Under the pieces are notes generated by a model, which saw only the letters and a program-made list of their open reading frames with translations, searched no databases and was not told where the DNA came from. DNA of 37,607 nt from a virus. Taxonomy: Duplodnaviria > Heunggongvirae > Uroviricota > Caudoviricetes. Shown piece after piece: positions 1,641 to 12,912 of the stretch. The position numbers and the translations under genes were made by a program. Every line of letters starts with the position of its first letter. The first letter of the stretch is position 1. The stretch lies in the IMG/VR virus record IMGVR_UViG_2636415906_000005; one strand, written 5' to 3'.

Positions 1641-4112
1641 TTAAGAATCAGCCTGACTCGGGATCAGTTTTTGCCAGATAACTGAAACGTATTTTGCCTG
1701 GTAACGGGCGTCATCAAGTGCATTATGGCGCTCACCTTCGAATTGAATAGCCGTTCTGGCATCGAAGTCTATGGCTTTCCCCAGCTCAACGATTGTGCGT
1801 ACATCGCGATCGTTGTAGTAACGCCACGGGCAGGGGATCCCCTGCCGTTCGTATGAACGGCGCAAAATCGTGTTGTCGAAGTTGGCTCCATTTCCCCAGA
1901 CCTGAACAAAAAATTCACCGGAGTTTTCGTCGATAAATTCCCGCAATTGTAACAGTGCATCATCTAACGGGATTTCATCGGTCATAATGGCAGATTGCGC
2001 TTCGCGTGATTGCTTAAGCCACCATTTAATGGTGTCCCGATCAATGACTCCGCCAGCAGTTTCCAGATCGATAGTCTTACTAAATTCCGGTCCCATATCT
2101 CCGGTTTGCGGATCGAAAAATATTGCACCTATTGAGATGATCGGGGCATCAGGATTTTTTCCCATGGTTTCAAGGTCGATCATTAGATGGTCACACGTCC
2201 TGCTGGTGGATGTGATTTCGTGATGACCGTTCACCTTAATTGAGTGATCTGCCGTCTCGCCAGTTTCATTATCGCTATCGTGATGCTGATTGCCGCCAGT
2301 GTTCTCCTTGTGTGGATGTTCAGCGCCTTCCATTTTCTCCGGATCATCTTCCTGAACTTCAACCTGATACTCTTCATCGAATGTTTCCTGGTATGTTGCG
2401 TCGCCCATTACCGCGCCACAATCAGGGCAGTTGCCGCCGCCGGTCTGACCGCAGGCGGTGCAGACTTTTTCCACTTTCTGTTGCGCCACTGATTCAGGCT
2501 GTTTCGTTTCTGGCTCGTTTTGTAACGCATTTGGGCTGTTTTGTTCCGCTTTTTGGTAGTTCCGTTCCGATTCATGCTGGTTCTGGTTCACAGAATCGCG
2601 GGTCTGGATCCCCTTAACCCATTTCGGATCATTCGGGTCACTAATCCCTTCAACAAATTCACCACGTGATGCAGCAAGCAACTTATCGGCGTCAGGCTGG
2701 ATGATATTGGCTGCCTGCATAATTTTGTTTACTTCGTCAGCGGTAACTTTTATCGGCTCTGGTTGTTCTGAATCTTCAGCGGTATCTACATTTTGCGGTA
2801 AGCCCGTGTATGTGCCATTTTTTCGGGCAAAATATTCTTCTTTTGTGATTTCAGTGGCGCCAGCAGCCAGTGCCTTATCCAGACCAGAAAGTTTGTTTGC
2901 GCGACCGTATTTTTCTCCGTCCTTATCTGCGAAGAGGAAATAGAACGGCCCCTCACGCTCTACAGATGGTTCAGCTTCCGGCGCGGTTTCATTTTTTGGG
3001 ATATCAGATACCTCAGTTTCCACTGCATCAGTTTGTGTTTCTGATGACTGGAGAACATCAACAGTGCCCAGGTCTGTTTCTTCATTCTCAAACACGCCCT
3101 TTGTCGTCAGGTATTCGCAGATATATTTGTTCAGTGCTACGGGATCTTTGTGAATGTCGATCGGACGTTCACGGACAAGGCCAAAAATAGTTTGGCGGTC
3201 GTAGCGAAGGGCATCAGGCTGTTTGCGCATTGATGCCGAGATACGCTTCCAGTCTTCGCGGTCGTTATCGATAACTTCATTTTTTGCCCAGCGATGGATG
3301 CTGCCGTCAATGTTTCCGGCATCCACATCACCAGGCCAGAGAGCGTAGGCCAGTTCGTCATCCAGTGTTTTCCATGTCTGCTTGTATTCGCGATGAATGG
3401 CAGCAATGACCGGGCTGATTTTTCCTGTTGAATTTTCAGTGTACTGTTGATTGGCTCTGGCGCGGGCGAGATCAACAACAGACGTGTATTTTCCGGTTTC
3501 CTTGCGTTCACCTTCGCGACGTTTTTTCCAGATGCGCATCTCTGCCTGAATTTCGGGCCATTTGGCACCAGGAATACATTTATGCTTAACCCACCCAATG
3601 GCGTGCAACTTAAGCTCCGGATACATGGCGTTAACTTCTGGCATTTTCATCAACGCTTCAACGATATGTCCGTCGAATGTTGCCATGTCTTCCTGCAACA
3701 ATTCCTGTGCGCTAATAACCATATCAACGGTGATGTTTTCACATGTGTCGAACTTAACCATGACAGCGTTCTGTACTTCAGGGGCCAGCTTGTCAAAAGT
3801 GACGTTCATCGGATCGGATTCAGTCTCAACCGGGACAAAAGAAGCAGACTCCTCATCCCAGCGGTTTTCCTGCATATATTCAGCATCCCATGAATCGAGG
3901 GCAGGGCGGGGTATGCCAGGTTTATCCTCGCAGACAATAAATTTATAAGCGCAGTCCTGAGCAGCCGGATAATGTTCCAGGAATTGCCAGTGAAATTTTG
4001 CTCGAGCACGGCGTTCGTCGCTAGCTTCAATGGCTGTGGCTACAGCCACAGCGCCTTCTTCCCTTGTTGCCAGTTCGTCAGGAATAGCGGCGCAAATAAA
4101 GACTTTACTCAT
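1641..4112 (-). CDS. RecE-like exodeoxyribonuclease VIII family protein with C-terminal DEDDh (DnaQ-like) 3'-5' exonuclease domain
   Basis: 823-aa ORF. The C-terminal 180 aa carry Exo I (HLMIDLETMG), Exo II (VWGNGANFDNT) and Exo III (HNALDDARYQAKY) motifs. Internal segments (ASRGEFVEGISDPNDPKWVKGIQTRD) match my recollection of E. coli RecE-family proteins. Located in the early-left operon. Confidence 0.8.
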   Translation of the reverse strand: MSKVFICAAIPDELATREEGAVAVATAIEASDERRARAKFHWQFLEHYPAAQDCAYKFIVCEDKPGIPRPALDSWDAEYMQENRWDEESASFVPVETESDPMNVTFDKLAPEVQNAVMVKFDTCENITVDMVISAQELLQEDMATFDGHIVEALMKMPEVNAMYPELKLHAIGWVKHKCIPGAKWPEIQAEMRIWKKRREGERKETGKYTSVVDLARARANQQYTENSTGKISPVIAAIHREYKQTWKTLDDELAYALWPGDVDAGNIDGSIHRWAKNEVIDNDREDWKRISASMRKQPDALRYDRQTIFGLVRERPIDIHKDPVALNKYICEYLTTKGVFENEETDLGTVDVLQSSETQTDAVETEVSDIPKNETAPEAEPSVEREGPFYFLFADKDGEKYGRANKLSGLDKALAAGATEITKEEYFARKNGTYTGLPQNVDTAEDSEQPEPIKVTADEVNKIMQAANIIQPDADKLLAASRGEFVEGISDPNDPKWVKGIQTRDSVNQNQHESERNYQKAEQNSPNALQNEPETKQPESVAQQKVEKVCTACGQTGGGNCPDCGAVMGDATYQETFDEEYQVEVQEDDPEKMEGAEHPHKENTGGNQHHDSDNETGETADHSIKVNGHHEITSTSRTCDHLMIDLETMGKNPDAPIISIGAIFFDPQTGDMGPEFSKTIDLETAGGVIDRDTIKWWLKQSREAQSAIMTDEIPLDDALLQLREFIDENSGEFFVQVWGNGANFDNTILRRSYERQGIPCPWRYYNDRDVRTIVELGKAIDFDARTAIQFEGERHNALDDARYQAKYVSVIWQKLIPSQADS

Positions 4113-4809: not shown

Positions 4810-5068
4810 ATTGATAACAGAGGGCGTTGCAGCGGGGTTGTCACTTAAGCGTATGGTCAACCTGACAACTCGGTGTCCTCAACGGGGAAGGAATAACCCC
4901 GCCATACTTACCGCCGCGCCATTTCGCGGGTTGCCACAACCGGAAGCGCACGGTCGAATTAAATTTAACGACACCGTACAGTGAGACGAACTTCGCCGTG
5001 CGCTTTCGTGTTGTGTGCCTGCTTTTAACCACGTCAGGCGAGGTGGTATCCTTAAAATCACCACAGTT

Positions 5069-5644
5069 TTAAGGATTCATTAAGCAATGTCGCAACCACC
5101 AATAAATCCGCTTAAGAACATGAAAATTGATTACTGGTATAAAGCGCTTACAGTTGTTGGCGCTGCGTTGTTTGTCTTTAATGGAACGTCTTTTTTTGAC
5201 AGATATCCCGTTGTTCCATTGGGTTTTTTGTCCTCCGGCATCTTTTTTATTGGTTTGGGGGAGTGGATTAATCACCCTCTCAAAGTGAGATTTATTGGTC
5301 CTGGAGTTTGGACTCGTGGATATAATCGTTCTTCGTGCGCACTCGGTATCATCTTCGACATACTTGGTTGTTTCCTGATTGTTACAGGAGTCGTCAAGTT
5401 CTTCTGATGTAAAACCGCAAATGGGGCACGTAACGGGAATTTTGAAAAGCGTTTCTCCGGGTTCCAGAACAAAATTTTCTGCGGTCTGATTTTGCTTCTC
5501 ATATTTGTGCTCCGCGTCATTGTGAGAGCACATTCTTATTCTGAGTGCCTGTTTAAACTCACTGAAGCTGAGAGCTTCTTCGCCTTCGGCAAGGCCTTCG
5601 AAGTATTCTTCGTAAGCCTTTTCCATGATTGTGTCGAAATCCAT
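5069..5644 (-). CDS. Hypothetical early-left protein (ydfB/ydfC-region equivalent) with CPICGF zinc-ribbon-like motif; 3' extent uncertain
   Basis: ATG at 5644 overlaps the ydfA stop; the first ~90 aa (MDFDTIMEKAYEEYFEGLAEGEE ... CPICGF) look protein-like, while the C-terminal half is Lys/Asn-rich low complexity and overlaps a plus-strand membrane-like ORF (5087-5407). One of the two readings is probably spurious. Confidence 0.4.
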   Translation of the reverse strand: MDFDTIMEKAYEEYFEGLAEGEEALSFSEFKQALRIRMCSHNDAEHKYEKQNQTAENFVLEPGETLFKIPVTCPICGFTSEELDDSCNNQETTKYVEDDTECARRTIISTSPNSRTNKSHFERVINPLPQTNKKDAGGQKTQWNNGISVKKRRSIKDKQRSANNCKRFIPVINFHVLKRIYWWLRHCLMNP

Positions 5645-5645
5645 A

Positions 5646-5801
5646 TCACTCACCTGAGTTTCTTTCCAGCCAGCGACGGGCACCATTTTCGGTTTTAAAC
5701 GTTTTGCTTTTGGTATACGTCATCGCGGTGAACGTACCGTCCTGGTTGGGGAACACGCCACATACCAGAGATTCGCTGTTGCCAAGATCGATAGTATCCA
5801 T
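5646..5801 (-). CDS. ydfA: YdfA-like small protein
   Basis: 51-aa product MDTIDLGNSESLVCGVFPNQDGTFTAMTYTKSKTFKTENGARRWLERNSGE from the internal Met of the 103-aa track ORF; first gene of the early-left operon downstream of dicA, the same position and size as K-12 ydfA. Confidence 0.6.
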   Translation of the reverse strand: MDTIDLGNSESLVCGVFPNQDGTFTAMTYTKSKTFKTENGARRWLERNSGE

Positions 5802-5874
5802 GCTGACCTCATTTCCCCTTAACGCCGGGGTAGCGGAACTGTTTGCTGAGAACACCGTGCGGTGTCTTGATTGA

Positions 5875-5993
5875 AGTAATTTAGTTTTCTCATTATTTTT
5901 CGTCAAGGTTTTTTGATGAGAAAACTCAAGTATTGGCGCAAGATAAAGCCAATACATTGAAATGTAAGGCTTTAAAATTTTGTGAAGGGATGA
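5875..5993 (-). promoter_or_regulatory. PL-like early-left promoter/operator region downstream of dicA, containing an OL-like operator repeat (5918-5936)
   Basis: Non-coding interval between the dicA stop and ydfA; contains GAGAAAACTCAAGTATTGG (5918-5936), which matches the dicA/dicC intergenic sequence at 6454-6471 in 18 of 19 positions, and a TATTGG-N12-CCAATA inverted repeat. Confidence 0.45.
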
Positions 5994-6401
5994 TTATTGA
6001 TGCTTGTTGCGTTTGCGAGCCTCTAATAGCTCGGTGAACAGGCGATTAAAATTCTCAACGCGGGCGCGGAGTTCGCTGAGTTGTGCTTGTTGCTCTGATT
6101 TAGGAAGTGCGCGATACAAACGCAGCATCTCTAACTCATCTTCCGATAAGTCTAAGGCACTATCGAGTGAAACAGGGGGAGCTGGTGTTTTGTCCTCGTC
6201 GCCAAACAGTATCCAGGTTGGTGAACATTGCAATACCTCGGCGAGGCGATGCAAATTTTGCCCGCGCGGGGCTGTATGGTCACTTTCCCATAATGAAATT
6301 GATGAGCCAGATACGCCAGCAGCTTTGCTTAAACCGTTTTGACTTAAGCCTACCTGCTTACGTCTTTTTCTAATGCGTTGACCTAAAGTTTTCTCGTTCA
6401 T
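5994..6401 (-). CDS. dicA: HTH-type transcriptional repressor DicA (P22 C2-like immunity repressor)
   Basis: Internal Met gives a 135-aa product with an N-terminal XRE-type helix-turn-helix (LSQNGLSKAAGVSGSSISLWE) and the C-terminal block VLQCSPTWILFGDEDK that I recall from K-12 DicA; divergent from a Cro-like gene. Confidence 0.85.
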   Translation of the reverse strand: MNEKTLGQRIRKRRKQVGLSQNGLSKAAGVSGSSISLWESDHTAPRGQNLHRLAEVLQCSPTWILFGDEDKTPAPPVSLDSALDLSEDELEMLRLYRALPKSEQQAQLSELRARVENFNRLFTELLEARKRNKHQ

Positions 6402-7211: not shown

Positions 7212-8157
7212 ACGCCCACTGGTTATAAACACACAGCTTGCGATGAAGATTGGCTTAAATGAAGCCATTGTGTTGCAGCAGTTGCATTACTGGTTGAGAG
7301 ATACCAATTCCGGCATGGAATGTGATGGTGTTCGCTGGATTTACAACACAACGGAACAATGGCTGGAACAGTTCCCATTCTGGTCAGAGTCAACGTTAAA
7401 GCGCGCGTTTGCAAGTCTGAAAACGCTGGGGCTTTTGCGTTGTGAAAAGCTCAATAAATCAAAGCGCGATATGACCAATTTCTACACGATCAACTACGGG
7501 AGCGAGCTTTTAGATGGTGGCAAATTGAGCGAATCCATCGGTTTAAAATGCGCCGCTCCATCAGGTCAAAATGACACGATGGAAGAGGTCAAAATGAAAC
7601 GCTCCATTGGTTCAAAACGACCCAATGTCATCGGGTCAAAATGGCCTGATGATCTTACAGAGAATACAACAGAGATTACTACAGAGAATAAAAACACTTT
7701 TCGTCCGGAAGCTTCGCAACCGGACCCGCAGACCGCTGAACAGGATTTTTTAACCCGGAACCCCGACGCGGTTGTGTTTAGTGCGAAAAAACGCCAGTGG
7801 GGTAGCAGGGAGGATTTGGCGTGTGCGCAGTGGATTTGGGGGCGGATCGTGAACCTTTACGAACAGGCTGCCAGCGACGATGGAGAGATCATGCGACCAA
7901 AAGAGCCTAACTGGACAGCCTGGGCCAATGACGTGCGCACAATGCGGATGCTGGATGGCAGAAGCCACAGACAAATTTGCGAAATGTTTGGTCGGGTACA
8001 GCGAGATCAATTCTGGGTAAAAAACATCATGAGCCCGTCAAAACTCCGCGAAAAATGGGACGAACTGGTCATCCGCCTGGGACGTTCACCTGTACAGCGT
8101 TGTATGAATCATATTTCTGAACCGGATACAGAAATTCCGCCTGGTTTCAGAGGATAA
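7192..8157 (+). CDS. Putative phage replication initiation protein (O-like / replisome organizer)
   Basis: About 321-aa ORF from the ATG at 7192 (overlaps the upstream gene end); the N-terminal predicted winged-helix region and the position after the cro/cII-like genes suggest a replication initiator. No DnaC/P-like helicase loader follows. Confidence 0.5.
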   Translation: MSLLFAERPLVINTQLAMKIGLNEAIVLQQLHYWLRDTNSGMECDGVRWIYNTTEQWLEQFPFWSESTLKRAFASLKTLGLLRCEKLNKSKRDMTNFYTINYGSELLDGGKLSESIGLKCAAPSGQNDTMEEVKMKRSIGSKRPNVIGSKWPDDLTENTTEITTENKNTFRPEASQPDPQTAEQDFLTRNPDAVVFSAKKRQWGSREDLACAQWIWGRIVNLYEQAASDDGEIMRPKEPNWTAWANDVRTMRMLDGRSHRQICEMFGRVQRDQFWVKNIMSPSKLREKWDELVIRLGRSPVQRCMNHISEPDTEIPPGFRG

Positions 8158-8197: not shown

Positions 8198-8599
8198 GTG
8201 GCAAAAGTTTTTACACAAGAAGAGCGGGAAAAAATTAAAGGGCAGGTGGTGGAACTCGTGCGCCAGAGCGGTCGTGAGACGTTACGGCAACTGGAAGCTA
8301 AAACAGGTGCGACTAGATATCTGATGAGCGTTCTTGCCAGAGAGCTGGTAGCCAGTGGCGATGTATACAACTCCGGCTACGGGTTATTCCCGTCTGAACA
8401 GGCGCGTAAGGACTGGCAAAACGCCCGCAAAAAACTATCGAGGGCAAAGGTGAAGAAAACAGCTGTGGTTGATCCGGACCTTATCTGGTCGTTACCTGAT
8501 GGAGAAATACGTCGCTACGACAGTCGCCTAAACATAATCTGTCGCGAGTGCCGGATGAGTGAAGTTATGCAGCGCATACTGGCATTTTATCAGGGATAA
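8198..8599 (+). CDS. Hypothetical phage protein (GTG start)
   Basis: 133-aa ORF with normal GC directly after the replication gene; no recognisable motif. Confidence 0.45.
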   Translation: MAKVFTQEEREKIKGQVVELVRQSGRETLRQLEAKTGATRYLMSVLARELVASGDVYNSGYGLFPSEQARKDWQNARKKLSRAKVKKTAVVDPDLIWSLPDGEIRRYDSRLNIICRECRMSEVMQRILAFYQG

Positions 8600-8696
8600 T
8601 GTTAGGTATTTTAGACGTTACTAGATTAAAAAGCATTAGTTCAGGAGTGAATTGACATTCTCATTTTTCATGGCACAGGGTAGATCTGGCGTGGTT

Positions 8697-8720
8697 GTCC
8701 GCTTTGTGCCAGAAGCGGAC
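8697..8720. repeat. Hairpin GTCCGC-N12-GCGGAC (left flank of AT-rich island)
   Basis: 6-bp perfect inverted repeat with a 12-nt loop; the same stem sequence and loop length recur at 10404-10427. Confidence 0.7.
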
Positions 8721-8798
8721 GTTACAATACAATCACTATGCTAATGCGCATTGATATGTGATATAACAATAATCAACCGTTCAAAAAGGAGCATTTAT

Positions 8799-9821
8799 AT
8801 GAGCAGGATGATAATTGATACAAATATTCTTTACTCACTAGTTGGTCTGTCGACAAACCAAAAAATAATTAACTCCCCTATAGATCAATTCAAATTATCC
8901 ATTACGACACCATCACTCATAGAAGTGATCTCTAAATATTGCAATGACTTAGGGGCTGTAAAAAAATGCATTAGCCCAATCATAAACGGAAATATTGAAC
9001 TAATTAGCATTGGTCATACTCCAATCTCAAATGAATTTCTTTATAGGTTGCATTTTTCAGACAAAATAGACGAAGTAAAAGATATTATTGATAATGTTAG
9101 AGCACTAAAAATATCTAGAGAGGCTGAGTTTTATAGGTTCATACTCATACTGGTTGTCTCTGGTTTGTTTGAGGTTATTAGAGAAGATGGATACAAGTTT
9201 GATAACGATGTACAAAATCAAAGTCAACTTAGTCTTGTGCAGACTCTACTTGAATCTAATATGGAATTAATTTTAGACTTCTTTAAAGATGAGTTGCGGA
9301 ATGGATATATTAATGGAAATGAGCAGCAATCAGCTTTGAAAGCTTTTGAAACCATGCTTATCGGACTCCTACATGCTTTTCATGTCAACTATCATATGAT
9401 TAAAACTGACACAGTTAACATTTCCGGAAGCCAAGACAGACTCAAAAATCTGTATGATAGTATAAAAAATGATAATTTTGATAAAAAGTTTAAAAAATAT
9501 ATGGAGAATCCAATATCCCTTGCCTGCAAAAAAAAACACGAATCAGTAGTTGATAACTACCTGAAAGAAATGGAGGAGGGGATTTCTGGCGCTCGTGGGC
9601 TTACTAAGAATTCGTTGAGCTTTCTAATGAGCAAGGTTGAGGATGCATATAAAAATGGTCGTAAATTACGAAAAAATGACATATTTGACTTTCTAATAGT
9701 TATTTCTCTAAATATGCCAGACACTTTGATTTTAACACTTGATAAAGGTTTTTTAAAAGACCTTAAAGATCTTCACCCTAACAGCTATAAAAAGTGTCTG
9801 GATTTCGGTTTTGTAAATTAA
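8799..9821 (+). CDS. Hypothetical 340-aa protein in an AT-rich cargo island; possible split PIN-like nuclease (candidate defense/accessory gene)
   Basis: ATG at 8799 with AAGGAG 7 nt upstream. The N-terminus MSRMIIDTNILYSLVG resembles the first PIN-domain strand with its conserved Asp; the C-terminus NDIFDFLIVISLNMPDTLILTLDKGF resembles the C-terminal PIN acidic motifs. Coding sequence is visibly AT-rich compared with the flanking phage genes (GC not computed). Confidence 0.65.
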   Translation: MSRMIIDTNILYSLVGLSTNQKIINSPIDQFKLSITTPSLIEVISKYCNDLGAVKKCISPIINGNIELISIGHTPISNEFLYRLHFSDKIDEVKDIIDNVRALKISREAEFYRFILILVVSGLFEVIREDGYKFDNDVQNQSQLSLVQTLLESNMELILDFFKDELRNGYINGNEQQSALKAFETMLIGLLHAFHVNYHMIKTDTVNISGSQDRLKNLYDSIKNDNFDKKFKKYMENPISLACKKKHESVVDNYLKEMEEGISGARGLTKNSLSFLMSKVEDAYKNGRKLRKNDIFDFLIVISLNMPDTLILTLDKGFLKDLKDLHPNSYKKCLDFGFVN

Positions 9822-9846
9822 AAATATATTGATGTAAAATAAAACG

Positions 9847-9915
9847 CACCCACATTTAACTTAGCTAGACTATATCCTTCAATTATTCTATCTGCTTTTT
9901 GTTAAATGTGGGGTT
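9847..9915. repeat. Inverted repeat CCCACATTTAAC / GTTAAATGTGGG (12-bp arms, about 45-nt spacer) just downstream of the 340-aa gene
   Basis: Perfect 12-bp arms read directly from the sequence; could form a long stem-loop terminator or structured RNA element. Coordinates approximate. Confidence 0.6.
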
Positions 9916-10403
9916 GCAGATGTTACGAGTCAATTAAATTTGCAAGTCAGGTAGAATTGATAAGAATTGCAATACGAATCCGTGAACATTAATGCTAACG
10001 CTAAGTATACGAAAGATATTGTAAATATACTTCTTTTTTTGTTTTTAAGTTCTTTTATTTGACAGTAGTTCCATCATTCAATTGCGTATTATCTTCCAAT
10101 GCCAGTGACACTCCCTCATTATGAGAGGATTGTGGTAATCAAAAGAAAAATTAATATCACGCCAAGAATATTCGAAACCAACCCTATGGTGTTAAGTCCT
10201 GGTGATGTCATTTAGTTTGCTCTAGGTTTATTATTCAGAAAGCAAAGAATATTCGTTAAATTATTATGTTAGCTTTAATTATTAAAAAACATGTTAATTA
10301 TCATCAAATGAGCACTTATCATCATTTTAGTCAAAGAGGTAGTGAGTATTCATTCTGGATCATAACTGCCTTCCTGTTTACGCTAGTGTTTTTTAAAGTC
10401 GAT

Positions 10404-10427
10404 GTCCGCTCATCGCTCAAAGCGGAC
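10404..10427. repeat. Hairpin GTCCGC-N12-GCGGAC (right flank of AT-rich island)
   Basis: Same 6-bp stem and 12-nt loop architecture as 8697-8720, in direct orientation, at the other end of the AT-rich segment. Confidence 0.7.
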
Positions 10428-10679
10428 TAGAAGGTTAGCTTGTGTCGGACTTTGCGTATTAAATGACTAGTGGTTGAGCCCCATTTCCACAGAAAAAATC
10501 AGAGAAACTATACCCAATAGTTGTATTGAATCACTGACGAGACAGCCTCATATTCATCAGGACTGGTGTACGTCCAATACAGGAGGTTGTGGTGCTGGTT
10601 CTCAAATGTGCGCTGGCTATTACGGCTGTAATGGCGATTTATTGTCTTGCTATTGTTCTTATGGATCGCCTTTCTGACT

Positions 10680-10892
10680 GATTTCACATTGGCGAGGTAA
10701 CGGTAGTTAAGTAGAATGGCTGCGGGTGCTTGAGGCTATCTGCCTCGGGCATGAACACCAACGGCAGATAGAGAAAAGCCCCAGTTAACATTACGCGTCC
10801 TGCAAGACGCTTAACATTAATCTGAGGCCAATTTCATGCTAGACACATGTAGGTTAGCCTCTTACGTGCCGAAAGGCAAGGAGAAGCAGGCT
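10680..10892 (+). promoter_or_regulatory. hok mRNA leader with overlapping mok-like frame (from 10836) and expected Sok-antisense target region
   Basis: Upstream of hokD there is an overlapping ORF starting at 10836 (MLDTCRLASYVPKGKEKQA...), the mok-like arrangement, and a 9-bp inverted repeat CTATCTGCC...GGCAGATAG typical of structured hok leaders. The Sok promoter itself was not pinpointed. Confidence 0.4.
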
Positions 10893-11048
10893 ATGAAGCA
10901 GCAAAAGGCGATGTTAATCGCCCTGATCGTCATCTGTTTAACCGTCATAGTGACGGCACTGGTAACGAGGAAAGACCTCTGCGAGGTACGAATCCGAACC
11001 GGGCAGACGGAGGTCGCTGTCTTCACAGCTTACGAACCTGAGGAGTAA
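10893..11048 (+). CDS. hokD: Hok/Gef family type I toxin HokD (RelF)
   Basis: 51-aa product MKQQKAMLIALIVICLTVIVTALVTRKDLCEVRIRTGQTEVAVFTAYEPEE, which I recognise as HokD/RelF; followed by a fold-back repeat CGAGGGAgaaaTCCCTCG and an intrinsic terminator. Confidence 0.9.
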   Translation: MKQQKAMLIALIVICLTVIVTALVTRKDLCEVRIRTGQTEVAVFTAYEPEE

Positions 11049-11861: not shown

Positions 11862-12912
11862 CGTGCGGGTATTACTTAGACCTGTTCTGGTGCCTGAGCT
11901 TGGGCTGGTGGTCCTTAAGCCGGGCCGTGAATCCATACAGATATTTCATAATCCTCGAGTGCTGGTGGAACCGGAACCAAAAAGCATGCGTAATCTGCCA
12001 TCCGGAGTCGTTCCTGCCGTTGGCCAGCCGCTGGCGGAAGACAAAACATTGCTGCCGTTTTTTAGTAACGCACGGGTAATTCGTGCTGCTGGTGGTGCTG
12101 GTGCATTGTCTGACTGGCTGTTGCGCCATATTAAATCCTGCCAGTGGCCACACGGCGATTATCATCACAGCGAAACCGTTATTCACCGTTATGGTACCGG
12201 CGCAATGGTGTTGTGCTGGCACTGCGACAACCAGCTGCGTGACCAGACATCCGAATCACTCGAGCAACTTGCTCATCAAAATCTGTCAGCATGGATGATT
12301 GACGTCATCGGTCACGCAATAAGCGGTACGCAGGAGCGTGAATTATCTCTGGCTGAATTATCCTGGTGGGCGGTCCGCAATCAGGTGGCGGACGCGCTAC
12401 CGGAAGCGGTATTACGTCGTTCGCTGGGGTTGCGTGCGGAAAAAATCCGCTCAATGTACCGTGAAAGCGACATCGTACCGGGAGAGCAGACCGCCACCAG
12501 CATACTGAAACAGCGCACAAAAAATCTTGCGCCGCTGCCTCACGCCCACCAGCAACAGAACCCACCACAGGAAAAGACGGTGGTCAGCATTGCCGTTGAT
12601 CCTGAGTCTCCGGAATCTTTCATGAAACGACCTAAACGTCGCCGCTGGGTTAACGAGAAATACACACGCTGGGTGAAGACACAGCCGTGTGCGTGTTGTG
12701 GTAAGCCAGCCGACGATCCCCATCACCTGATTGGTCATGGTCAGGGCGGAATGGGGACAAAATCTCACGATATTTTCACGCTACCGCTGTGTCGGGAGCA
12801 TCACAACGAGCTTCATGCGGATCCTCTGGCGTTCGAAGAAAAGCATGGTTCTCAGGTTGATTTAATTTTTCGTTTTCTTGATCACGCCTTTGCAACTGGC
12901 GTGCTTGGGTAA
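11824..12912 (+). CDS. ydfU: DUF968 family protein (YdfU-like) with C-terminal HNH-like zinc-binding motif
   Basis: C-terminus CACCGKPADDPHHLIGHGQGGMGTKSHDIFTLPLCREHHNELH carries a CxxC...HH...C..HH..H pattern typical of HNH/DUF968 proteins; this is the position occupied by ydfU in Qin. True start codon uncertain (possibly the Met at 11986). Confidence 0.65.
   Translation: MRPALSSNGSGGNVRVLLRPVLVPELGLVVLKPGRESIQIFHNPRVLVEPEPKSMRNLPSGVVPAVGQPLAEDKTLLPFFSNARVIRAAGGAGALSDWLLRHIKSCQWPHGDYHHSETVIHRYGTGAMVLCWHCDNQLRDQTSESLEQLAHQNLSAWMIDVIGHAISGTQERELSLAELSWWAVRNQVADALPEAVLRRSLGLRAEKIRSMYRESDIVPGEQTATSILKQRTKNLAPLPHAHQQQNPPQEKTVVSIAVDPESPESFMKRPKRRRWVNEKYTRWVKTQPCACCGKPADDPHHLIGHGQGGMGTKSHDIFTLPLCREHHNELHADPLAFEEKHGSQVDLIFRFLDHAFATGVLG

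Follow-up and report, generated by a model that had tools for sequence, protein, structure and literature searches.

The stretch analysed here, referred to as the window, is the whole 37,607-nucleotide (nt) DNA of IMG/VR virus record IMGVR_UViG_2636415906_000005; it is a Qin-like lambdoid prophage, and its integration site adjoins rspB, the same as that of the cryptic Qin prophage of Escherichia coli K-12. Between its lygF and hokD genes lies an AT-rich island that ends at two related hairpins, termed L (left) and R (right), and whose single intact long gene encodes a protein of 340 amino acids (aa) with a predicted PIN nuclease fold. The segment 8697-10427 is one member of a family of exchangeable cassettes present in enterobacterial temperate phages and related elements, and the reading proposed for it, with a probability of about 0.6, is that of a defence-type cassette that carries a self-contained PIN ribonuclease (RNase) and is swapped at L and R.

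Regarding its composition, the windowed GC content is 0.29-0.36 from 8600 to 10450 versus 0.44-0.56 on both sides; the drop supposed in an earlier note on this DNA, whose reader had only the letters at hand, is thus borne out by computation.

Boundary Hairpins L and R

The boundary features are the following:

8697-8720, plus strand: left boundary site L, GTCCGCTT-TGTGCCAG-AAGCGGAC; the outer arm (8697-8703) goes with the context and the inner arm (8714-8720) with the cargo
8705-8711, plus strand: invariant loop core of L, TGTGCCA; the context/cargo switch lies here, in the putative left crossover region
8712-10412, plus strand: cargo-linked part, comprising the inner arms and the cargo, as given by the linkage map, the junctions and the homology
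10404-10427, plus strand: right boundary site R, GTCCGCT-CA-TCGCTCA-A-AGCGGAC, approximately the reverse complement of L with a different loop core
10413-10419, plus strand: invariant loop core of R, TCGCTCA; putative right crossover region

Both sites have the form GTCCGC-N12-GCGGAC, exactly where and as the earlier note had described them. The GTCCGC-hairpin pattern occurs three times in the window, against 0.01 expected from shuffles of the window; the third copy, GTCCGC-N9-GCGGAC at 12373-12393, falls inside the reading frame of ydfU (DUF968), has a loop unrelated to those of L and R, and is probably due to chance. Taken together, L and R form an inverted repeat of 24 nt (83% complementary, 20/24 nt), longer than any other in the region, and as single-stranded DNA they fold with energies of -8.6 and -7.2 kcal/mol, respectively (z = -3.0 and -2.4). 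Across their relatives, the consensus is GTCCGCT-Y-TGTGCCA-GR-AGCGGAC-RTT for L and AAY-GTCCGCT-NN-TCGCTCA-A-AGCRGAC for R; the two are related palindromes of 24-27 nt, placed in inverted orientation at the cassette ends.

As for known elements, the Rfam scan of the region returned only sok and no family for the hairpins; the terminator scan found none at either hairpin, and no U-tract follows L or R. The promoter scan gave GTGCCA-16-TACAAT across L, and the consensus downstream of L, RTTGNT, resembles a -35 element. A literature search with the motif strings and with their pseudo-peptide readings found no mention of them. Hairpin folding as a structural requirement was also considered, and it is unsupported by covariation, the stem changes being one-sided.

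Mobility of the Unit

The 1.73-kb unit recurs at 89-91% DNA identity in Enterobacter hormaechei, Serratia liquefaciens and Proteus terrae, where the BLAST homology runs from 8697-8703 to 10422-10427 with none beyond, and where the encoded PIN proteins are 85-87% identical to that of the window. The contexts are unrelated: a prophage tail-fibre/invertase region near Dsr1 in E. hormaechei, DNA beside a P4-like satellite in S. liquefaciens, and a position next to PRTase-CE/NADAR and Gabija in P. terrae. Because the hairpin-ended unit recurs in this manner in three other genera, the island can be said to end at its hairpins, and the earlier description of a self-contained unit holds.

The converse situation, a different cargo in the same context, is found in the isolated phages mEp460_ev081 and Tritos, whose similarity to the window breaks off at 8723 and resumes at 10396-10404; a third isolate, Evi, likewise has flanks in common with the window. 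In the two slots examined, those of mEp460_ev081 and Tritos, a different gene of ~445 aa lies on the opposite strand. More distant homologues of the PIN protein also sit in L/R cassettes: one with 62% identity is within a three-cassette array in a P2 Z-region, and another with 63% identity directly follows a DarT/DarG cassette on a plasmid-like contig. Finally, among 5,426 complete E. coli genomes, 72 contain the whole island, and each of the 25 best matches listed shows 100% identity to it; an empty slot, defined by both flanks lying at most 760 bp apart, was found in none of the 5,426.

Some side observations concern these loci. In E. hormaechei CP047570 (941-5041 of the locus), a second L/R cassette, which holds a full-length Dsr1 (SIR2), lies at a distance of 3 kb from that of the PIN gene, and umuDC separates the two, so that a prophage region can hold several cassettes. 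The Serratia locus has an extra L-type site (7867-7882) ~25 nt upstream of the cassette's own L, and in Proteus the following cassette, PRTase-CE + NADAR, begins with an L-type site (3338-3352) that lies ~40 nt downstream of R; these additional sites could be relics or the junctions of arrays. An insertion sequence splits the island in two of the 72 E. coli genomes, NZ_CP147069.1 and NZ_CP099754.1, one of them with an IS4-like ISVsa5 and the other with an element of the IS3 family.

Family of Boundary Sites and Its Cargo

At least 120 viral contigs contain the 16-mer TGTGCCAGRAGCGGAC. In so large a collection chance alone could yield this many, but nearly all the matches in viral contigs extend to the full hairpin; in the genome-wide scan, which is diluted by chance matches, only 59 of 123 have the hairpin arm. 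R usually follows 0.3-4 kb downstream of L on the same strand, and L-then-R is the dominant order (69 pairs), with arrays in which R is separated from the next L by 24-30 nt. The sites occur in P2, lambdoid phages and plasmid-like contigs; they are absent from the TO region examined in the P2 record, and they therefore mark the Z/fun hotspot and not all hotspots.

At least 64 distinct cargos lie between the sites in viral contigs, with a median length of 1.66 kb and a GC content of 0.39 versus 0.48 in the flanks; most consist of one gene, on either strand. A census based on a scan of the 56 longest cargo proteins identified Dsr1 (full length), PD-T7-1, PD-T7-5, PD-T4-2, PDC-S15, PDC-S31 and PDC-S35, together with mREase_IV/GmrSD, Mrr, DarG, NsnA, RT-protease and RT-TIR, and with HEPN_LA2681, a CAP12-type TIR and PRTase-CE. 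The window shares the features of this family, having the TGTGCCA core at one end and TCGCTCA inverted at the other, the same cargo in different contexts, different cargos in the same context, and junctions inside the sites.

Variation in the palindromes themselves is also seen. In the P2-type context (3300-3340 and 4905-4945 of one locus, and several viral loci) the palindrome extends outward, CTGACAGTCCGC ... GCAGACTGTCAG; in some cassettes it extends inward, GCGGAC-RTTGCTAACAGCGTT ... AACGCTGTTAGCAAY-GTCCGC, for total inverted repeats of ~40 nt; and a second arm subtype, GGCWGC / GCWGCC, exists. Alphaproteobacterial metagenome-assembled genomes (Pseudolabrys, Methyloceanibacter, Hyphomicrobiales; loci L134-L209, e.g., L194, L189, L180, L158 and L152) have hairpins with the same stem, ATGTCCGCT-N8-10-AGCGGACAT, in tandem ~50 nt apart and with variable loops, the L-type TGTGCCAG among them; these may belong to a much wider family of palindromes, similar to repetitive extragenic palindromes (REP), that shares the stem.

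Proposed Exchange at the Loop Cores

The position of the switch between context and cargo was mapped by comparing pairs of sites with the same flank and different cargo (98 for L, 68 for R) and pairs with the same cargo and different flank (22 for L, 13 for R). In L, linkage is to the flank at positions 1-15 and to the cargo at positions 18-27, and R is the mirror image. Explicit junctions are provided by the lygF-hokD slot, which has at least seven cargos: on the left, GTCCGCTTTGTGCCA is constant and is followed by variable sequence, and on the right the sequence is variable up to the constant TCGCTCAAAGCGGAC. From the linkage map and these junctions, the switch is placed in or at the 7-nt cores (L, TGTGCCA; R, TCGCTCA).

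Arms of 7-10 bp around an asymmetric core of 7-8 bp are the layout of a tyrosine-recombinase core site, and by analogy L and R appear to be built in this way. Cassettes would be swapped by recombination within or at the 7-nt loop cores, with L pairing with L and R with R, and the differing cores would block excision and inversion and allow replacement. Replacement rather than excision would leave a slot that is never empty, which fits the count of 0/5,426 E. coli genomes. It is tempting to see in L and R the sites of a dedicated site-specific system, namely a natural form of cassette exchange that works with differing cores like engineered recombinase-mediated exchange, and for which the protein with the PIN domain and its insert would be one of the one-gene immune effectors; this proposal is tentative, and we place it at somewhat less than even odds. 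Its platforms would be P2-like phages, lambdoid prophages, satellite-adjacent DNA and plasmid-like elements of Enterobacterales.

A serious rival, possible though on balance doubtful, takes the hairpins as passive, conserved for a regulatory or structural role (as terminator, insulator or promoter -35) common to many phages, with cassettes moving by short-homology recombination over the 24-27-nt patches, either ordinary or driven by a phage single-strand annealing protein, and centred on the conserved functional element. No recombinase gene is linked to the sites, which occur in replicons as diverse as P2, lambdoid phages and plasmid-like contigs; the prophage in the window encodes a RecE-like exonuclease; RTTGNT downstream of L is -35-like, and a promoter-like match spans L; some linkage leaks at the positions adjoining the cores; and a 2026 paper on the P2/P4 hotspots leaves homologous or illegitimate recombination as options. 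However, the switch is concentrated at the 7-nt cores at both ends, the homology on either side of it is at most 15 nt, very short for RecA, and L and R keep differing, invariant cores over dozens of unrelated contexts; moreover, U-tracts are missing after both hairpins, whose folding energies are weak.

The inverted arrangement of L and R also recalls a non-autonomous transposon, similar to a miniature inverted-repeat transposable element with cargo, that would have imperfect terminal inverted repeats of 24-40 bp and be mobilised by a transposase in trans. The correspondence of L with the reverse complement of R (20/24 nt), the inward extension of the repeat in some cassettes (RTTGCTAACAGCGTT / AACGCTGTTAGCAAY) and the presence of the unit in unrelated contexts agree with such an element, but there are no target-site duplications, the flanking bases being inverted and not direct; the outer arms travel with the context and not with the cargo, the presence or absence of a whole unit is not seen at a slot that is empty in 0/5,426 genomes, the arrays have a fixed spacing of 24-30 nt, and the 2026 study reports transposable elements to be almost absent from P2/P4 and not in significant numbers in defence hotspots. 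A transposon is hence very improbable. Integron attC, IS200/IS605 ends, REP/RAYT, Xer/dif and the invertase sites gix/hix were compared as well, and each is a misfit in sequence or in junction position.

The PIN-Fold Protein

The gene and its ribosome-binding site are placed as follows, as the earlier note had them:

8799-9821, plus strand: gene of the 340-aa PIN-fold protein (ATG at 8799, stop codon ending at 9821), with the PIN core at residues ~1-75 and 290-340 and a helical insert at ~78-290
8786-8791, plus strand: ribosome-binding site AAGGAG, 7 nt before the ATG

The AlphaFold model, built on the family alignment, has a predicted local distance difference test score (pLDDT) of 89.8 and a predicted template modelling score (pTM) of 0.86. 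Strands are predicted only at residues 3-6, 32-36, 67-69 and 309-312, and residues ~78-290 form a block of long helices; the modelled core has the three-layer alpha/beta/alpha fold with a parallel beta-sheet typical of PIN domains, and its closest folds are VapC toxins, such as 5sv2 (VapC21), 3zvk (VapC2) and 6sd6 (Shigella VapC). The model therefore supports a single VapC-like PIN domain formed by the N- and C-termini, with an all-helical insert of ~220 aa between them.

The family alignment points the same way. Among 69 members, down to ~15% identity, D7, E42, E108, N293 and D297 are invariant and T8, N9, Y12, Y170, D294 and D315 are at least 90% conserved; PIN nucleases have four conserved acidic residues, on beta1, alpha2 and the C-terminal strands, and by this alignment the candidates for such a framework are D7 and E42, both invariant, and D294, D297 and D315, invariant or at least 90% conserved. 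Three distant relatives exceed the Pfam PIN cut-off of 23.6 bits with their N-terminus, at profile positions 1-57 (P0134 with 25.0, P0162 with 25.0 and P0146 with 24.3 bits), and in another, P0118, residues 298-328 align to profile positions 88-114, the C-terminal part. The earlier suggestion of a split PIN domain stands at the level of fold and motif; by sequence threshold, it fails for the protein of the window itself.

The family is small, with 26 matching clusters among 5.8 billion proteins; an exhaustive profile search collected 154 representatives among 1.84 billion, nearly all of 330-360 aa and matching end to end. The window protein has no significant match in Pfam, PADLOC, PHROGs, NCBIfam or the PDB sequences, in accordance with the earlier remark that it could not be assigned to a named system; in PADLOC-DB 2.0 it has zero matches, and ten distant relatives match only at E >= 0.01. 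Foldseek against viral structures gave nothing useful, probably owing to the split domain, and no homologue was found in the PLSDB plasmids. As for partners, no conserved neighbour gene accompanies the protein in the contexts examined, and no small upstream gene of the kind expected for a VapB antitoxin is present in the window or in seven other contexts.

The Tail of the Cassette

The 580 bp 3' of the PIN gene are not empty, and contain:

9849-9860 and 9901-9912, no strand assigned: perfect 12-bp inverted repeat, CCCACATTTAAC / GTTAAATGTGGG, with halves 40 nt apart, between two convergent genes
9960-10211 (lower coordinate approximate), minus strand: frameshifted remnant of a small gene (MTSPELNAIGLISNILGVILIFFFG...), with a counterpart of 82-96 aa that has two hydrophobic segments

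The inverted repeat, already picked out in the earlier note, is kept in 4/4 aligned copies (window, Enterobacter, Serratia and Proteus), with folding z-scores of -4.2 and -4.1, and it is a possible terminator, since a T-rich run follows it on the minus strand. The Enterobacter, Serratia and Proteus copies have the convergent small gene in intact form; in that of the window, frameshifts have spread it over three frames, next to an intact PIN gene. The same note had taken the island to hold one long gene, which is right for intact long genes, but the tail also holds this decayed second one.

The small gene bears on a further alternative, namely that the PIN protein is not a defence effector but either the toxin of a toxin-antitoxin pair, with the small convergent membrane protein or an unrecognised RNA as partner, or a nuclease serving the prophage in RNA turnover or counter-defence. 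Its closest folds are indeed VapC toxins, the 87%-identical copies carry the second gene, and L/R cassettes are not restricted to defence genes. However, the small gene is frameshifted in the E. coli version (72 genomes) beside an intact PIN gene, and it is missing from the cassettes with the 62-63% homologues; because it is broken in one case and absent in the other, the PIN gene can be carried without it, and it is no obligatory antitoxin. With no VapB-like gene upstream in any context examined, and with neighbours and sister cassettes dominated by defence genes, this alternative is considered unlikely.

Proposed Role of the Protein

The relatives of the protein are found beside Gabija, DarTG and Dsr1, and because of these neighbours and of the many known defence genes carried by like cassettes, an anti-phage role is inferred: the protein is probably a one-gene abortive-infection or defence effector, by analogy with its surroundings. 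Its cargo type is probably that of an uncharacterised PIN nuclease carried as a prophage defence moron. Regarding the mechanism, the protein would be a metal-dependent PIN nuclease, most likely an RNase as in VapC, and the insert would act as an internal gate or sensor that keeps the PIN site inactive, the part played in VapBC by the separate VapB; a phage cue would release the site, and cleavage of tRNA, rRNA or mRNA would stop phage growth.

A number of observations pull the other way. On the side of exchange, in addition to the leakage next to the cores and the lack of a linked recombinase gene, the pairs in the linkage analysis are non-independent, and short-homology recombination centred on a conserved core fits the map too; the stem changes are one-sided rather than compensatory, only the closing pair 8/17 being associated (Fisher p = 4e-4), and some cassettes have an R-type core at both ends. 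As for the protein, it misses the gathering cut-off of Pfam PIN (PF01850), with no PIN match even at E = 10, and the family profile run against the PDB reaches VapC only at E = 0.66, which is not significant. Finally, the cargos include genes that are not defensive (MFS, ArsB, GNAT and glyoxalase), and PIN domains are known also in proteins without a defence role.

Position of the Slot in the Prophage

The slot is delimited by two conserved flanks, both outside the cassette:

8198-8599, plus strand: lygF/DUF977 ("Ren-like") gene, left flank of the variable slot
10724-10898, plus strand: sok/hokD leader (Rfam RF01794, 115 bits), right flank of the slot

The order of genes is cI/cro-type switch, ydaT-like gene, replication gene, lygF (DUF977), island, sok/hokD, rem, ydfU, rusA and Q; the placement between the replication genes and hokD, given in the earlier note, is accordingly refined to lygF upstream and sok/hokD downstream.

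Within the conserved block between R and sok/hokD, an open reading frame (ORF) of 30 aa at 10589-10681 on the plus strand, MVLVLKCALAITAVMAIYCLAIVLMDRLSD, is hydrophobic, starts with GTG and has AGGAGG 5 nt upstream; it is without RefSeq annotation and contains a terminator-like hairpin at 10616-10635. Compared with the window, phage Tritos has three synonymous and two conservative changes in it, a pattern that speaks for a genuine small membrane peptide, perhaps the product of a second type I toxin-like gene.

In the Qin prophage of K-12 MG1655 (4980-5996 of the locus), a degenerate L (~4991) and a degenerate R (~5973) surround flxA, which looks like an old L/R cargo; relBE lies between this flxA cassette and hokD, at the place that corresponds to the slot of the window.

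Relation to Known Systems

In P2, an L site, CTGACAGTCCGCTCTGTGCCAAGAGCAGAC, and an R site, GTCCGCTCCTCGCTCAAAGCAGACTGTCAG, surround the Z/fun moron, between the tail-fibre assembly gene and FI. The motifs at P2 Z/fun and in the Z-regions of P2-like coliphages are the same as in the window, the difference being the location, which here is the lygF-hokD slot of a lambdoid, Qin-like prophage, and there the interval between tail-fibre and sheath genes of a P2-like phage. Nilsson, Karlsson and Haggard-Ljungquist (2004, Mol Biol Evol 21:1) reportedly noted the inverted repeats at P2 Z/fun. The L/R hairpins belong to this inverted-repeat system, which had been recorded a single time, at one locus of P2 in 2004, and is here seen to be much wider; the earlier note was right about the flanking hairpins of the moron, but its reader missed that they belong to a widespread boundary family and missed the link to P2 Z/fun. 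In GenBank AJ512681, the proviral Z-region of P2-EC48 (ORF1-3), a "left inverted repeat" is annotated that ends at the L motif, and ORF1, labelled "putative lysogenic conversion protein", shares 62% identity with the window protein. According to a review that summarises Nilsson et al. (PMC8987985), inverted repeats lie on both sides of fun and make site-specific recombination possible. In two later studies, both on P2/P4 hotspots, there is no mention of a hairpin, palindrome or inverted repeat, and one of them, from September 2026, covering thousands of P2 and P4 elements, names no boundary motif and states that the recombination processes "still need to be elucidated".

With integrons, the L/R cassettes share short, promoter-poor cargos, often of one gene, with imperfect palindromes in between, arrays, and exchange at the palindromes, which for L/R is putative. 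They differ in having a site at each end instead of one attC, in cargos of either orientation, and in stems without compensatory changes; furthermore, no integron integrase is annotated in the prophage, there is no attI, and the sites are without RYYYAAC/GTTRRRY boxes.

The pdif modules of Acinetobacter plasmids are built on XerC/XerD sites, placed as inverted pairs around resistance or toxin-antitoxin genes. Here too, modules are bounded by inverted copies of a site of ~28 bp that has two arms around a short centre, and they occur in many contexts, but the L/R arms are unrelated to dif (GGTGCGCATAA / TTATGTTAAAT). The PeSL "mobile regulatory cassettes" of T4-type phages, said to have been described by Arbiol et al. 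in 2010, are stem-loop sequences that flank variable genes in hyperplastic regions and were proposed to shuffle them; PeSLs are direct repeats with an early promoter, act by homologous recombination and belong to virulent phages, whereas L and R are inverted, have two cores and occur in temperate phages.

As for the cargo, the window protein differs from VapC-type PIN toxins (PF01850) in its helical insert of ~220 aa, in having no adjacent VapB, and in lying below every Pfam threshold. CapRel(SJ46) is a fused toxin-antitoxin defence protein with a RelA/SpoT-like pyrophosphokinase fold. Like it, the window protein is a single prophage polypeptide with a toxin-type catalytic domain and an extra domain able to gate it; the toxin fold is PIN in this case, and gating by the insert is a role suggested by the analogy.

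Significance

The protein defines a compact family that had no annotation, that of a PIN nuclease split by a large helical insert and without a partner gene; since it travels in the cassettes and islands that also hold proven defence genes, it is an obvious candidate for a new one-gene defence system that has its regulator built in. At a wider level, L/R cassette ends are found at P2 Z/fun, in the lygF-hokD slots of lambdoid phages, within arrays, and on a plasmid-like contig beside DarTG, and they are a simple search key for new defence genes, which would be whatever sits between L and R. Defence genes are swapped fast at phage hotspots, and the L/R sites give this process a handle that can be tested at the bench; if the sites do serve a dedicated exchange system, temperate phages and related elements of Enterobacterales would have an integron-like system for the distribution of anti-phage genes.

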